A program made the translations under genes and the position numbers. Positions 7,261 through 12,101 of a stretch of 64,000 nt of DNA are shown piece after piece. The stretch covers positions 160,001-224,000 of the forward strand of contig CBDBCR010000001.1 in assembly GCA_965203465.1 (NCBI GenBank). The letters run 5' to 3'. The first letter of the stretch is position 1; every line of letters starts with the position of its first letter. The notes under the pieces are model-generated. The model had not been told where the DNA came from and did not search any database. It was given only the letters and a program-made list of their open reading frames with translations. Source of the stretch: Nitrosopumilaceae archaeon. Lineage in GTDB: Archaea; Thermoproteota; Nitrososphaeria; Nitrososphaerales; Nitrosopumilaceae.

Positions 7261-8751
7261 TCAGACCATCAGCAGGAACATGGACGCGGGGATCATCGCG
7301 CATTCCCTGTGCTCCGAGAGGCGATCCCGCGTCACCATCAGCGCCCTGCGCCCGCGCGCGGCCCTCTTGAAGTTTATCAGCCCGTCCAGATCCCTGTTGT
7401 TTATGCTGCGCTGGAACTTTACTTCGATAGGCACCTCGATACCCGCACCGTCGTTGTACACCAAGTCCACCTCGGAGCCGCGGCTGTGCCAGTAATGTAC
7501 ATGGTTGGAGCTGACGAACGTCCGTTTTTTCCGGCTGCGCAGGAACGCCAGCCTGATCAGGTGGTTTGCCACGACGCCCTCTACCAGCCTGCTCTGGTTG
7601 TGCGGCTGTTCCACGAACCCCCTCCAAGCCTCGAATGAAGGCGTGCCCGAGATCCACCCGTTGAGCACGCTGAAATAAAACGGATCCTGAAAGTGGATCT
7701 TTTTCTTTTTTCGGCCAATGGCCCTTTTGCGCGCTGGGTCGTACTGGTAGAGCACGGACACGACGAACATGTCTTCGAGGGTGCCCACGTACCGCGAGGC
7801 CGTGTACTCTGTCCGCACGTCCGTGCCTTTTCTGAGCGACCCCCACGACGTCGTCATGCCGGCAGCCCCGCACAGCCTTTCTGCCACCTGCCTCAGCGCG
7901 CCTTCCCTCCTGTAGAACGCCCCAAAGTCTTCCTGGATCGCCCCGAGATGATCCGCGTACGTGGATTCGGCCACCGCCTTGCCCTCCCTGTACTCGCCGG
8001 CCGCCCTTGGCACCCCGCCGGTCAGCATGTAGTCCTCCAGGTGCCTGTCGAGGGCCGGCGCGCGGGCGAGTATGTCGTGCAGCACGGGGGGCACCCTGTT
8101 GTTAAAGACGTACCGCTCAAAGATCTCTTTTCTCTGCGCGGGGCGCCGGAAGTTCTTTTCGACGATCCGGGCGATCTCTTGATCCATCACGGAGGCAAAC
8201 TCGGAAAACTTCATCGGCAGCATGGCCTTGTCCACGTCGGCCAGCTCGCCCCTGCGCCCCGGAAGCCTCTCGGCGGACCGCCTCGGATCGGCGAAGGATC
8301 CGATTACGATCACGGTGCAGTTGTCCAGCCTCTTTTGATCCCACAGGCGCTTGACGCCTTTCTGCCAGTCCCGGACAGACGAGATCTCGTCAAGAAATAG
8401 GTAGCACCTGCCTCTCCCCCTGTTGTCGGCGGTGTTGTCCAGATAGCCCTTGACCAGCGAGACCAACTCCTTCGGGCCGTCTTTCGCGCAGAACGAACGG
8501 TACATGACGTTCCACGGCGAGGCGCCCCCGCGCACGAGCTCCCGTATGAGCGCCTTTACCGCGGTGGTCTTGCCTATCCGTCTCGGGCCGCGCAGCGAAT
8601 ACACGGAATCCCCGCCGAAATCAAACTCGCGCATGATCTCGGGCTCCCATTTTGCGGACGAGCCGGACCGTCGGACGAGCAGGGGATCGGAATCAACCTT
8701 TGAGGGGTCGCCCCACCACGGATTGTCTTCGACGAGTTCCTTGGGGAGCAC
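7261..8751 (-). CDS. AAA_14 ATPase with C-terminal DUF4143 PD-(D/E)XK domain
   Basis: Walker A GPRRIGKT, Walker B FLDEI, YMLTGGVP, EVDLV...PIEVK. Confidence 0.88.
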   Translation of the reverse strand: MLPKELVEDNPWWGDPSKVDSDPLLVRRSGSSAKWEPEIMREFDFGGDSVYSLRGPRRIGKTTAVKALIRELVRGGASPWNVMYRSFCAKDGPKELVSLVKGYLDNTADNRGRGRCYLFLDEISSVRDWQKGVKRLWDQKRLDNCTVIVIGSFADPRRSAERLPGRRGELADVDKAMLPMKFSEFASVMDQEIARIVEKNFRRPAQRKEIFERYVFNNRVPPVLHDILARAPALDRHLEDYMLTGGVPRAAGEYREGKAVAESTYADHLGAIQEDFGAFYRREGALRQVAERLCGAAGMTTSWGSLRKGTDVRTEYTASRYVGTLEDMFVVSVLYQYDPARKRAIGRKKKKIHFQDPFYFSVLNGWISGTPSFEAWRGFVEQPHNQSRLVEGVVANHLIRLAFLRSRKKRTFVSSNHVHYWHSRGSEVDLVYNDGAGIEVPIEVKFQRSINNRDLDGLINFKRAARGRRALMVTRDRLSEHRECAMIPASMFLLMV

Positions 8752-8954
8752 CGCGGCCGCCCCGGGACGCGCTCATATATCTTGTAAAATTCTGCTGTTG
8801 GGTTGTTTAAATACTCGGGGAAAGCTCGTTGCGGGGTCTTTTTTATGGATCGGGCCTGCGATGCCGAAACCGTTTCGCTTGCCGGCGGGCCGGCCAAATG
8901 CATGCCTGCGCTACCCGGCATCTGGATTGGCGGGACGCTGCCGGCCGGCCTTGG

Positions 8955-9968
8955 CTACGCGAGGCCCTCGTCCGCCCGGTATTCGGAGCCGTGGGTCAGC
9001 ATGTGCCAGACTATCTTGGTCAGGCTGTGCGCTACGGAAACCATGGCTTTCTTTTCGTGCATCTTTTTTGAAAGCCTCTCGTATTTGGCGGACATGCGGG
9101 CGTCATGGCGCGCCGCGCCGGCGGCGGCCTCCATCATGGCGTGCCTGAGCCACGCGGTCCCCCTTTTTGCCGAGCCGCCGGCCTCGGCCCTTCTGTCCGG
9201 GCGGGACGGCAAAAGGCCCGCGTACGAGACCAGTTTTTCCACGGTGCCGAACCTCTTTACGTCGGCGATCTCTGCCACTATGGCCAGCGCGGGTACGTAC
9301 CCGATCCCCGCTATCGTCGTGATGCGCCTTGCCCCCTCGTCGTCCGCGTACTCGGCGACGATCTTGCGCTCCAGGTTCTCCGTGTGCTCCTGCAGCGTCT
9401 CCAGCACGTCGAGGCACGAGTCGAGCGCCATTCTGTTCACGGGCGAGACGCTCGCGGCACGCATCCGCCCCATGTCCGCCTTTGAAAAGTCCTCCGCCGG
9501 CAGCCCGTGATCGTACTCTTCCAGAATGGCCGTTATCCTGTTCTTCTGGTGCGCGGCCGCGCGGACTATGTCGAGCCGGGTCCTGGTCAGGACGCGCAGG
9601 TTCCTGTAGCGCTCGTCGGGCACGAACGATTCGCGCACCAGGCCGATGCAGAGCAGATCCGCGAGCACCTCAGAGTCCGACCTGCCGCCTCTCACGTTCG
9701 CCTGGTCTACGGTCTCGATGTTGGATCCGTACGCCAAGACGGTGTCTATGCCGCACTCTTCCAGCGTGTCGTGCAGCGTCGCCCAGTAGCTGCCGTCCGA
9801 CGAGCAGGCGGCCTTGGCGTCCCCGTGCGTCTTTTTCACGCGCTCTGCGAACGCCTCAATGTCCTTTTTGTCGTTCCTGAATTCGGCGCGCTCTATCGTG
9901 CCGCCGGAATCGGACTTTACCGTGGCCTCGCACGTCTTTCTGTGCACGTATATCCCGATGTTGATCAA
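8955..9968 (-). CDS. IS110-family transposase-derived protein with degenerate catalytic residues
   Basis: IGIYVH, LRVLTRTR, TIAGIG...AIVAEIAD..RF....KLVSYAGLLP, KRG..WLRHAMMEAA, KKAMVSVAHSL; TTG start at 9968. Confidence 0.85.
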   Translation of the reverse strand: MINIGIYVHRKTCEATVKSDSGGTIERAEFRNDKKDIEAFAERVKKTHGDAKAACSSDGSYWATLHDTLEECGIDTVLAYGSNIETVDQANVRGGRSDSEVLADLLCIGLVRESFVPDERYRNLRVLTRTRLDIVRAAAHQKNRITAILEEYDHGLPAEDFSKADMGRMRAASVSPVNRMALDSCLDVLETLQEHTENLERKIVAEYADDEGARRITTIAGIGYVPALAIVAEIADVKRFGTVEKLVSYAGLLPSRPDRRAEAGGSAKRGTAWLRHAMMEAAAGAARHDARMSAKYERLSKKMHEKKAMVSVAHSLTKIVWHMLTHGSEYRADEGLA

Positions 9969-10289
9969 CGCGCCGCCCCCGGAACGGCCGGATTTGTAGA
10001 TTTGCCCGACCGGGCGCAAGGAACACGTCCGCTTGGCCGGCGCCACGCTCGTCTGTTGCCGGTTCCCGTGCCCATCTAGGAACGCCCTGCCTATCCCCAC
10101 AGATAAGTTTGAGGGAGGCACGATTCAGGCCTACGCCATGCATCCGGGGCGCCGGGCCGACGCTTCTGACAAACCGATATGCCGGCTTACGTGTACTGCT
10201 TGTGCCTTTGTAGATTGCATTGCGGCTCGGCCGGCGTGGGTGCGGGGCCGGGGGTGGCACTATTATAGCCTGATAGATGGGGGACGAAG

Positions 10290-12101
10290 ATGTTTGGCGT
10301 TGCGAGGTTCGGGGAAACCGGCCTGTGGGCGGTTCCGGCGGTCATGCTGGTGGCCTGTGGGCTGTTTTTGGCCGTGCCGGATGACGATGGCTTGCCCAGC
10401 TCTGCGGTGCCGTATACCGAGACTAAGTTGGTACCAGAGGTCTCACATGTGTTCAGCTCGTCGGATACGGTAGAATCACGACTAGAGTCCGCCGAGTATG
10501 CCCAACAGGGGATCGTAACATCAAACGACGCAAAGACCACCGCAGCTCAAAACGTGGTAGTTTATCCGGCAGCATTCGCAAACATGCACGATGTTATGTA
10601 CACTAGGTATCTTCTGCCGTACGGCGACATCTGCGTGTTTGACGACGAGGGGAACTTGTATGGTGGCTCTGAAAACTACGTGTTCCGGGCAGACGTATCG
10701 GAAGGGGCTGTGACAAAATGGATAATACCGCATGATTCTACTTTTTACGGATGTGAGGATACGGATTCGGCCGGACGGTTTTATTTCACTACCGGTGCCA
10801 ATAACCTTATCACTGATTTCAATACACTATTGCGTCTCAATCCTGCCAATAATTCGTTTACAAACTACGGTCTTGCAACACGTTCTGCCATTGTCGATTC
10901 TGGCGATGATGTGTATATGCACCAGCTTGGATACACGTATGTATTGGAAGGAAGCAGAGACACAAAAGTGTTCGTTAGTCATCTTGGCATATCGGTAGAC
11001 TACGATCCAGATGATGAATGGCATCAATGCAATGTTAGATGTTTCGACGTACAAGATACGTGTGACAATGCTTGTGAAGACGCACAACGATCGTGCGAAC
11101 AAGCATGCGATAACTCACAACAATGCCTTGATGCATGTAATACTACTGAGTCTCAATGCGAAGATGCTTGTGCAGATGAGCGCTTTGGGTGTGAAGATGC
11201 GTGCTATGCAGGACCTGGCAGAATCGACGAGAACGATTCGGTGTATAATGTAGTACAATTTCTAGGCTCTGGTGTGTCCGGGCCGGCTACCGTGTCCGTC
11301 TTGTCTTCTGACAGCTCCGTTCTGGGAACCGCTTCGGTGCTTCCTGACCGCCGCGGAATCGTTTTCGCAGAAGTCAGAGTCCCGGTAGATGTCACATCTG
11401 GAACCTTCGACAGAGAATCTCATACTTGGGACATACCGCCAGGCCCGTACAGCACCACCGGGCGCCACACTCTAGTACTGGAAGATTTGTCGCAGACTGC
11501 CAGCACGGAGTTCGAATTGGATCCCAACAGGATAATCACGCCTGCACCGTCCCCTCTTGAACAACATTCTGGAGGAACATATTTTCACCGTGCATTGGTA
11601 GCAAAATTAGACACCGACACCAATAGGCTCACTACGTTTTATGGCAACATTTCAGACTCGGGATACAGCGTGATTGCACTAGATCCATCAGGCCGTTTGT
11701 ATTTGGAAGGAGACAACTATATCGCAAGATTCGATCCAGTTTCCAACGAATTGAAAGAGTGGTACGTTGGTTCAGCCGATGCCATAACACAATACGGCGC
11801 ATACGACAAAAAAGTATACTATGTCGAGAGCCTACAGCACAGGACGATGCTAGCAGAACTGGACATGGAAGAAAACACGCTGCGCAAGTGGACTATGCCG
11901 CACCACCGGTCGCCAAGTTCCATAGCTGTAGACGGTCAAGGCGATGTGTTCTTGGCGTTTTATTTCAGTTCTTGGCTGAAATTCGTACCGTCGACTGGCA
12001 CGTTCACTGAGTTTGGCGATCCCGACCCATATCATTTTGAGATCGGCCCGCAGGATGTGCTCTATTGGGCACAAACTGACCGTGGTGGGATTATAAGATA
12101 G
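10290..12101 (+). CDS. Secreted beta-propeller (Vgb/NHL-like) protein with Cys-rich insert
   Basis: Signal peptide; blade repeats (TKWIIP, RLNP.NNSFT, RFDP.SNELKEW, KFVPSTGTFTEF); lower GC. Confidence 0.75.
   Translation: MFGVARFGETGLWAVPAVMLVACGLFLAVPDDDGLPSSAVPYTETKLVPEVSHVFSSSDTVESRLESAEYAQQGIVTSNDAKTTAAQNVVVYPAAFANMHDVMYTRYLLPYGDICVFDDEGNLYGGSENYVFRADVSEGAVTKWIIPHDSTFYGCEDTDSAGRFYFTTGANNLITDFNTLLRLNPANNSFTNYGLATRSAIVDSGDDVYMHQLGYTYVLEGSRDTKVFVSHLGISVDYDPDDEWHQCNVRCFDVQDTCDNACEDAQRSCEQACDNSQQCLDACNTTESQCEDACADERFGCEDACYAGPGRIDENDSVYNVVQFLGSGVSGPATVSVLSSDSSVLGTASVLPDRRGIVFAEVRVPVDVTSGTFDRESHTWDIPPGPYSTTGRHTLVLEDLSQTASTEFELDPNRIITPAPSPLEQHSGGTYFHRALVAKLDTDTNRLTTFYGNISDSGYSVIALDPSGRLYLEGDNYIARFDPVSNELKEWYVGSADAITQYGAYDKKVYYVESLQHRTMLAELDMEENTLRKWTMPHHRSPSSIAVDGQGDVFLAFYFSSWLKFVPSTGTFTEFGDPDPYHFEIGPQDVLYWAQTDRGGIIR

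Follow-up and report, generated by a model that had tools for sequence, protein, structure and literature searches.

An IS110-family gene in the window

We analysed a 64,000-nucleotide stretch of a Nitrosopumilaceae archaeon genome (contig CBDBCR010000001.1, positions 160,001 to 224,000; hereafter the window, to which unlabelled coordinates refer). On its minus strand, at 8955..9968, the listing of open reading frames (ORFs) and their translation give an uninterrupted 337-codon gene of the IS110 family of insertion sequences (ISs). The gene encodes a full-length protein that has lost most of the catalytic residues of the family; we refer to the two as the dead gene and the dead protein. The gene lies between a remnant of an IS left end and DNA in which no IS right end is recognisable:

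8955..9968, minus strand: coding sequence of the catalytically dead IS110-family protein (start codon TTG at 9968-9966, stop codon TAG at 8957-8955, 337 codons)
9969..10125, minus strand: remnant of the IS left end (bridge-RNA region), delimited by sensitive alignments, a consensus structure and pair counts
8752..8954, minus strand: intergenic DNA 3' of the stop codon, without a recognisable IS right end (search with end sequences; limit of blastn homology at 8973)

The mechanical ORF is longer (8955..10121, minus strand, 388 amino acids, GTG start) and shares the frame of the 337-codon gene. The TTG codon that opens LINIGIYVH (called as MINIGI) is the start in database gene calls for protein P0002 and for the active relatives P0005-P0009 and P0014. 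The 51 additional 5' codons of the longer ORF are homologous to non-coding IS left-end DNA, and they are open because stop codons are rare at 63% GC.

Both domains of the IS110 architecture score above their curated cut-offs in the window protein: PF01548 (DEDD_Tnp_IS110) with E 4.3e-21 and 75.8 bits (cut-off 29), and PF02371 (Transposase_20) with E 4.1e-15 and 56.4 bits (cut-off 21.3). The NCBIfam model NF033542, 'IS110 family RNA-guided transposase', scores 174.5 bits (cut-off 140), and the match spans its positions 2-342 of 343. The Pfam and NCBIfam matches and the frame confirm an earlier sequence-only reading of this DNA, which had described an intact ORF of about 337 residues with IS110 architecture. 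The GC content at third codon positions (GC3) of the dead gene is 85%, compared with 77-89% in host genes and 77% in an active IS of the same genome (described below); this closeness to the host genes indicates a long residence.

Loss of the catalytic residues

We aligned three proteins of the dead type with 13 relatives (alignment A2). All 13 relatives carry GID, CE(S/A)TG, K(N/D/S)D(K/R)xD and R.S(G/A), and the five catalytic residues are kept in 13/13. The three dead-type proteins instead carry GIY, CSSDG and RGGRSD, with a two-residue gap at the position of the Ser-Gly pair. Set against the family, the motifs of the dead protein read IGIYVH versus IGIDVH, CSSDG versus CE(S/A)TG, RGGRSD versus K(N/D)D(K/R)xD, and SRPD--RRAEAGG versus S(H/Q)R(N/D)SGET. 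When the A2 profile is aligned with the IS621 recombinase (8wt6_A; E 1.6e-24), the catalytic columns fall on chain residues D13, E62, D104, D107 and S243. With an offset of +2, as the 328-residue length of the chain suggests, these would be native residues D11, E60, D102, D105 and S241. The corresponding codons, placed by A2 and the IS621 profile alignment except where stated, are:

9948..9950, minus strand: Tyr, codon 7, first DEDD position (IS621 D11); Tyr in all three dead-clade proteins
9801..9803, minus strand: Ser, codon 56, second DEDD position (IS621 E60), in the context CSSDG
9684..9686, minus strand: Gly, codon 95, third DEDD position (IS621 D102), in the context RGGRSD
9675..9677, minus strand: Asp, codon 98, fourth DEDD position (IS621 D105), retained; D98 is an invariant column
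9156..9218, minus strand: former catalytic Ser loop, codons 251-271, Ser-Gly absent (two-residue gap); placed by A2, variability and the structural model

The aspartate at the D105 position is kept (D98), so that three of the four DEDD residues and the Ser-Gly pair are lost. The sequence-only reading had both active sites erased. Alignment with active IS110 proteins upholds this for the positions of D11, E60 and D102 (now Y, S and G) and for Ser-Gly, while the D105 position alone is conserved. That reading had also described the Ser-Gly loop as replaced by SRPDRRAEAGG; Ser-Gly is indeed gone, but the loop is two residues shorter as well, which is more than a substitution. A pairwise HMMER alignment places an Arg opposite the catalytic serine, where A2 shows the two-residue gap. 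The loop is the most variable stretch of the dead clade (10/21 columns). The motifs read earlier from the letters are all found in A2, and the scaffold motifs GIG, AEI..RF, YAGL and KRG..WLR are kept.

In IS621, mutation of any one of D11, E60, D102, D105 and S241 abolishes recombination (Hiraizumi et al., PMC11208158, in the excerpted text). The same excerpts describe the IS110 active site as composite, with the RuvC residues contributed by one protomer and the serine by a protomer of the other dimer.

We do not read losses of this extent as chance. In a wider set of 148 full-length relatives, 128 keep D-E-D-D-S, and three or more of the five positions are lost only in the dead clade (3 rows) and in P0024. 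The other 16 are changed at one or two positions: P0028 and P0074 at two, and 14 at a single position, where N-terminal truncation or alignment slips may account for the difference.

P0024 and P0028 form a second, independent IS110 clade with substituted catalytic positions, on long branches of the tree. The five catalytic positions of P0024 read S, A, A, D and N. P0028 has Gly at the E position and at the D105 position, and with 42% G+A+R+P it looks degenerate. A search for relatives of P0024 in 61 genomes of the family, the host genome of the dead gene included, returned nothing closer than 60% over part of the protein.

Descent from a resident, active insertion sequence

The host genome (2.26 Mb in 4 contigs) holds the dead gene as a single copy. 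The same genome carries a 1345-bp IS in four copies, two of them intact and two interrupted by another IS. The protein of this IS (P0005) is 57% identical to the dead protein (73-74% nucleotide identity between the genes), keeps all five catalytic residues and has a C-terminal tail 20 residues longer than that of the dead protein. The element has a strong ribosome-binding site, 11-bp subterminal inverted repeats and a left-end RNA structure in which 33/34 pairs form.

In maximum-likelihood trees the dead proteins make up one clade (100/100) whose sister is the resident active IS (91/87 and 86/76), and the two also share homologous left-end DNA. The stem of the dead clade measures 0.55-0.57 changes per site and the sister branch 0.08. 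On this sequence evidence, the dead gene is a descendant of the 1345-bp IS still resident in the genome.

Element ends and the bridge-RNA region

Homology to the active IS detected by blastn spans only 8973..10009. Upstream of the start codon, a 20-nt block (~9989-10009) matches the active IS at 19/20 positions. The left-end remnant as a whole is 80% identical to the active IS over 147 alignable bases, with 16 gap events, and is 52 nt shorter, while the adjoining coding frame is continuous over 337 codons. A count of 28 gap events in the coding region, made at the nucleotide level, was discounted: at 74-79% identity, permissive gap penalties create such gaps artefactually.

Neither the terminal sequence nor the 11-bp subterminal inverted repeats of the active IS were found at the dead locus. 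Within 8752..8954, the 11-nt subterminal repeat has no match at up to 3 mismatches, and the terminal 11-mer has only 3-mismatch matches, which we read as chance. The gene is present in one genomic copy, and features of a mobile element are missing; a single copy without IS ends was one of the checks named in the sequence-only reading.

We compared the left ends of six active elements (the resident IS and five from two sister genera or genomes; three of the six are close kin). Their consensus structure has 34 pairs, 8 of them with compensatory changes, and consists of an outer closing stem that encloses two modules, each of stem, internal loop and hairpin. One internal loop carries a segment that repeats the left terminus of the element itself and co-varies with it (CCGGCAGAC, GTAAGAGAC, GTAATAGAC and GTATGAGAC). 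By analogy with the architecture in the excerpted text of PMC11208158, we take this structure to be a putative bridge RNA.

The six active left ends form 31-34 of the 34 consensus pairs and the dead locus forms 17/34. Within the dead locus, the closing stem keeps 7/8 pairs, the first module 0/11 (it is deleted) and the second module 7/12. The terminus-mimicking segment survives in degenerate form (CCGGCAACAGAC, compared with CCGGCAGAC in the active IS), flanked by deletions. Judged by this six-sequence consensus, the dead locus does not encode a two-loop bridge RNA in cis. Rfam scans gave no match at E up to 1 for the dead locus or for four active elements; since the active elements were missed too, this null result says nothing about a bridge RNA. 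Single-sequence folds are no better than those of shuffled sequences for either the active left end (z +0.49) or the remnant (z +0.53), and minimum free energy alone is therefore uninformative here.

In a close strain (~97% alike; runs X10 and X11), seven small insertions, 9 bases in all, cluster at 10041-10056, at or adjoining the degenerate terminus-mimicking segment. The cluster could be a hypervariable spot or reflect poor alignment.

Predicted fold and pairing

The AlphaFold2 model of the dead protein has a mean predicted local distance difference test score (pLDDT) of 86.8 and a predicted template-modelling score (pTM) of 0.77. Only the former Ser loop (residues 256-270, pLDDT <50) and the last four residues are disordered. 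Over the full chain, Foldseek matches the model to IS621 (8wt6_C; E 9.3e-14, TM 0.69/0.75) and to ISCro4 (9t56; TM 0.71/0.76). The predicted fold comprises a RuvC-like domain, a coiled coil and a Tnp domain, as in IS621.

Co-folding of the dead protein with the active recombinase gave an interface score (ipSAE) of 0.72, compared with 0.00 for the best of 3 controls. The ipSAE mark used is reached by 58/80 solved complexes and by 2/110 mismatched pairs. At least 93% of contacts recur between runs, the partner has a pLDDT of at least 82, and the predicted interface is formed by the coiled coil (residues 123-202). The IS621 dimer has already been solved, so passing this mark indicates likeness to that dimer and not binding. 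In the model, the dimer interface of the dead protein looks intact.

Relatives and selective constraint

In a search of 5.8 billion proteins, 8000 candidates were scored and 18 of them reached E 1e-30 or better. P0002 (99% amino acid identity) represents the cluster of the window's own protein, with 11 members; the metagenomic relatives P0003 (7 members) and P0004 are 88% and 79% identical. All three have open frames (337, 336 and 337 amino acids) and the same Y, S, G and loop losses, so that the losses expected in relatives are shared by open-frame proteins at 88% and 79% identity. Two scans of JGI metagenomes yielded no ortholog, a DNA search of the genus found neither an empty site nor a syntenic copy, and an Atlas search returned ordinary IS110 clusters only.

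The whole stretch, or part of it, is contained in 15 of 16 listed sequencing runs from 7 studies. None of the runs listed as containing it is an RNA run, which says nothing about expression. We compared Logan contigs of four runs (sponge and marine) over window positions 8400-10600; the variant table lists 40 of 182 rows. The runs and the labels of the homologues (Nitrososphaerota, Cenarchaeum-type) suggest a sponge-associated or marine archaeon.

A contig from a sponge metagenome (X15, record 21) covers 8956-10018, is soft-clipped at both positions, and has 74 base differences and one in-frame 3-base deletion. A different upstream genomic context at the clipped end at 10018 was considered and rejected, the 30 loose letters being 24/30 alike to the window by eye. 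Among the 39 differences listed (of 74), 22 are synonymous and 17 non-synonymous. The observed mutation spectrum predicts 28% synonymous changes under neutrality (binomial p=2e-4), and omega is ~0.31 for these 39 listed differences of one contig. If the contig encodes P0003, at least 42/74 differences are non-synonymous and at most 32/74 synonymous, which places omega at or above ~0.52 (p=0.004); p for this bound rises to 0.05 if 6 of the 74 lie upstream of the gene. For the dN/dS below 1 proposed earlier as a check on the gene, these figures give an omega of ~0.3-0.5 with a synonymous excess, on 39 listed differences and a bound from one contig.

Constraint is also seen in the proteins. In the dead clade 82/336 columns vary, and the variable columns avoid those most conserved in the family (11/92 in the top conservation quartile; 25/87, 21/73 and 25/84 in the others; Mann-Whitney p=0.004). 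Of 92 columns conserved to 92% or more among the 13 active relatives, all three dead proteins preserve 65. Variation within the dead clade is more frequent in columns where the family consensus has been lost (11/27) than in columns overall. A pattern of constraint by domain was rejected: the three-way comparison shows the lowest variability in the RuvC part (19%), yet between P0002 and P0003 this part diverges most (18/118). We read these data as relaxed but real constraint in most lineages, as far as sequence comparison can tell, and its loss in at least one.

Neighbouring genes and other features of the genome

In the ~97% strain, a contig over 8402-9013 joins the neighbouring AAA-ATPase gene to the 3' end of the dead gene, with 9/612 differences. 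Among the strains compared, this downstream neighbour is shared only with that strain. AT-rich, TATA-like boxes (TATTTAAAC and ATATATGAG) lie at 8752-8850, 20-70 nt upstream of the AAA-ATPase start. They suggest that the AAA-ATPase gene is transcribed from an archaeal-type promoter of its own and not together with the dead gene. On the other side, a divergent ORF of 603 amino acids (10290-12101, plus strand) has a GC content of 49.9% and a GC3 of 50% in a 65% GC genome, with no Pfam match. Judging by its composition, this ORF adjoining the dead gene is probably acquired DNA.

The interrupted copies of the active IS lie at G000:C3:728,633-731,125 and G000:C1:500,536-502,987. The product of the interrupting IS has helix-turn-helix and DDE_3-type Pfam domains, and P0017, a 514-aa fusion frame, is seen with these copies. 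Just to the left of active IS copy B, part of its left end is duplicated (G000:C3 ~936,990-937,082); the duplicate ends exactly at the internal terminus-mimicking segment (...CATGAGGGTGA|CCGGCAGAC). By sequence, it looks as if the IS had recombined with DNA encoding its own guide-like segment. Copy A is abutted by a ~75-nt palindromic repeat (G000:C3 ~326,778-326,856) that recurs at 12 further places on C1 and C3 at 81-96% identity and may be a target resembling a repetitive extragenic palindrome (REP) or a miniature inverted-repeat transposable element (MITE).

Two other features of the genome are recorded here. A ~200-nt unit gives dozens of overlapping matches at 64-80% (L002 1-712, G000:C3 219-223 kb and 322-326 kb, and G000:C1 1,010-1,015 kb), which probably belong to a large gene family or array rich in repeats. 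Elsewhere, at G000:C1:898,315-899,274, lies an intact but unrelated gene of the IS110 family, which encodes 403 amino acids, is 28% identical and keeps its GLDVHKK motif.

Interpretation of the dead gene

The recombination chemistry is gone, the element is immobile and the scaffold is kept. Frame, fold and most family-conserved residues seem to have been kept under relaxed purifying selection in several lineages, and the protein therefore most likely has a role that does not require cleavage. We lean towards selection as what has kept the dead protein; that the transposase has been kept as a non-catalytic protein is probable, on a finely balanced judgement. The sequence-only reading had proposed exaptation. 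In its favour stand the selective loss of catalysis from a full-length, confidently folding protein and the constraint on family-conserved sites, and a frameshifted allele in a relative (P0020, below) stands against it.

The proposed course of events begins with an ancestral IS110 copy that would have lost its recombinase chemistry through the changes of D11, E60 and D102 to Y, S and G and the removal of the loop bearing the Ser-Gly nucleophile. The ends and the bridge-RNA region would then have decayed, leaving the gene immobile and single-copy, while frame, fold and most family-conserved residues would have been maintained by relaxed purifying selection. The dead protein could dimerise through its coiled coil and either join the active recombinase or compete for the bridge RNA of the active IS. 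Because IS110 cleavage needs RuvC residues and a serine from protomers of two dimers, a dead subunit would be expected to stall recombination. It would then act as a trans-dominant brake on the resident IS, as a poison subunit or as a competitor, and the host would benefit from such a brake on the four resident IS copies. The fast evolution of the gene, and its loss in some lineages, would be in keeping with an arms race with the IS. Given retention by selection, we regard this mechanism as plausible, if not quite probable. A further reading takes the protein for a recent, living case of an IS110 bridge recombinase that its archaeal host has converted to non-cutting use, either as a programmable binder borrowing the bridge RNA of the resident IS (or using its own one-loop remnant) or as an evolved anti-transposon brake caught in an arms race with that IS; this we hold to be rather unlikely.

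Several observations weigh against a retained function. An omega of 0.3-0.5 is high, and the dead lineage has accumulated ~0.68 changes per site since the split, compared with 0.08 in the active sister, a rate ~8 times faster. The ribosome-binding site is weakened, from GGAGGTGA in the active IS to GGGGGCGG at the dead locus. The X10/X11 strain differs more inside the gene (22/757 and 9/217 bases) than in the neighbouring stretch described above. A fourth dead-clade allele, P0020 (with IGIYV and RGGRSD, on a 46-kb contig; one of 3 matches among 494 candidates in a search of shorter proteins), carries a frameshift across residues 51-87 and departs from the gene beyond codon 123. A one-base deletion at 9704, inside the gene, in an X11 contig (~93% alike, depth 7.1 of 13.9) may be a frameshift allele or an assembly error. 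Together these two cases imply that the gene is dispensable in some lineages, or that there are assembly errors. Frameshifted alleles in close relatives, named earlier as a sign of simple decay, are present in P0020 and perhaps in one low-depth contig; the frame is free of stops and frameshifts in the window copy, P0003 and P0004. The clade is also narrow: there is no ortholog in 60 related species genomes, where the best match outside the own genome has 43% identity, and none in a GTDB-wide scan (43 pattern stretches, one encoding a relative, unrelated at 30%). The open frame by itself is weak evidence of function because stops are rare in a GC-rich gene; under neutrality the gene would stay free of stops with a probability of 0.29 after 74 substitutions and 0.15 after 111. 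Intact alleles are moreover over-sampled, because protein searches return called, near-full-length genes.

These points bear on the chief rival explanation, a slowly decaying, functionless relic, that is, a defective copy of the resident IS that has acquired no stop or frameshift yet in this strain owing to its GC-rich DNA. Such a relic would explain the long branch, the weakened Shine-Dalgarno sequence, the broken allele and the possible 1-base deletion allele, and both the chance of an open frame and the sampling of the searches are compatible with it. The eroded ends and bridge-RNA region fit it too, as does a G+A+R+P content of 30%, compared with 24% in the active IS, which indicates drift towards GC-rich codons; and the P0024/P0028 lineage shows that substituted IS110 forms arise repeatedly. 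Decay without selection does not, however, predict the synonymous excess in the X15 contig (22 of 39 listed differences against 28% expected) or the avoidance of family-conserved columns by variable sites. The frame is continuous in three lineages up to 21% apart in protein sequence, with one in-frame 3-base deletion only, while the adjoining non-coding remnant has lost whole modules; the stem of ~0.55 amino acid changes per site carries no frame break, and the fold is confidently predicted. We regard a relic as a serious explanation, though short of a probable one.

An RNA-guided DNA binder of the TldR type would draw its RNA from its own left-end remnant, or use another guide, and regulate genes without cutting. 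The Nop-like motifs of the Tnp domain (GIG, AEI..RF, YAGL, KRG..WLR) are kept, as are the outer closing stem of the left-end RNA (7/8 pairs) and, in degenerate form, the terminus-mimicking segment (CCGGCAACAGAC for CCGGCAGAC), and the insertion block at 10041-10056 in close strains might represent a variable guide. In IS621, a dimer together with a single loop binds one DNA (PMC11208158, in the excerpted text), so that a one-loop binder is mechanically conceivable. On the other side, the candidate RNA forms half of the consensus pairs, with the modules at 0/11 and 7/12. In close strains 9979-10082 carries 8 mismatches and 9 inserted bases in 104, compared with 22/757 in coding sequence, and looks unconstrained; the conserved adjacent guide RNA of such systems is missing. 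Since the candidate RNA in cis has collapsed and is poorly conserved, we consider this explanation very unlikely, unless the protein borrows the RNA of the active IS. The analogy drawn earlier to a TldR-like protein with its own guide RNA is accordingly poorly supported: one module of the left end is deleted and close strains carry extra small insertions.

A recombinase that is still active through other residues, such as Tyr7 or Ser56/Ser57, is more improbable still, to the point that we give it almost no weight. In its favour, the three dead-clade proteins share Y7, S56, S57 and D58 without exception. Against it, three of the four metal-binding acidic residues and the Ser-Gly loop are gone, and mutation of any one of them abolishes recombination in IS621 (PMC11208158, same excerpts). 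The gene is single-copy without recognisable ends, and the columns that lost the family consensus vary within the clade more than the rest (11/27 versus 82/336).

Relation to known systems and implications

The favoured reading, a transposase kept as a non-catalytic protein, can be set beside several known systems. With IS621 and ISCro4 the dead protein shares the Pfam/NCBIfam architecture, the three-part fold and a predicted coiled-coil dimer interface. Unlike them, it lacks D11, E60, D102 and Ser241-Gly242, and its locus has no ends, is single-copy and has a collapsed bridge-RNA region.

The Tn5 inhibitor protein and the P-element KP repressor are trans-dominant, inactive transposase derivatives; they are truncated products of the parent element and inhibit it. 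The action proposed here would be alike, in that a non-catalytic relative would join or compete with the active multimer. The dead IS110 protein differs from both in being a separate, immobile, full-length paralogue outside any element.

TldR proteins are nuclease-dead, RNA-guided repressors derived from TnpB that keep a guide RNA and target host promoters (bioRxiv 10.1101/2023.11.30.569447, in the excerpted text). To judge from these excerpts, the likeness is one of concept, a retained RNA-guided enzyme of a transposon without its catalytic residues. TldR belongs to another protein family, and the dead IS110 locus differs in its eroded RNA region in cis.

Nop5 and some Tas proteins combine a dead RuvC-like domain with a Nop-type domain, and kinship with or descent from IS110 has been proposed for them (Vaysset et al., preprint; PMC12045711; both in excerpt). 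As those excerpts present them, Nop5 of the box C/D ribonucleoproteins and the TIGR-Tas proteins resemble the dead protein in joining an inactive RuvC-like N-terminal domain to a Nop-type RNA-binding domain. The dead protein scores 37.6 bits with the TIGR-Tas family model NF052498 (TIGR_Tas_endo; cut-off 100), and Foldseek gives TM 0.57 to TasR and 0.27-0.28 to Nop5-type chains. Nop5 and TIGR-Tas are ancient and very distant, whereas the dead protein branched off recently and shares 57% identity with an IS that is still living.

A full-text literature search brought up no published case of a host that retains a recent, naturally dead IS110 paralogue; supplementary tables, which lay outside the search, may list some. 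In the excerpted text of Bertels et al. (PMC5581495), IS110 serves only to illustrate what a typical mobile IS family is.

Among RNA-guided DNA enzymes, the IS110 recombinases form the newest class. Their ancient relatives Nop5 and some Tas proteins have been proposed to arise from IS110-like proteins by loss of the active site in the RuvC domain (Vaysset et al.; PMC12045711; in excerpt). As a mere relic, the dead gene would be a defective IS copy of the ordinary kind. If it does encode a non-cutting IS110 binder or brake, it would do for IS110 what TldR does for TnpB, and would offer a present-day model of the proposed step from IS110 to Nop5-type proteins. A functional dead paralogue, together with a 57%-identical active IS in one genome, would be a tractable pair in which to follow the taming of RNA-guided transposases. 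It could show whether hosts restrain bridge recombination by means of dead subunits, and which surfaces of the protein matter once catalysis is gone.

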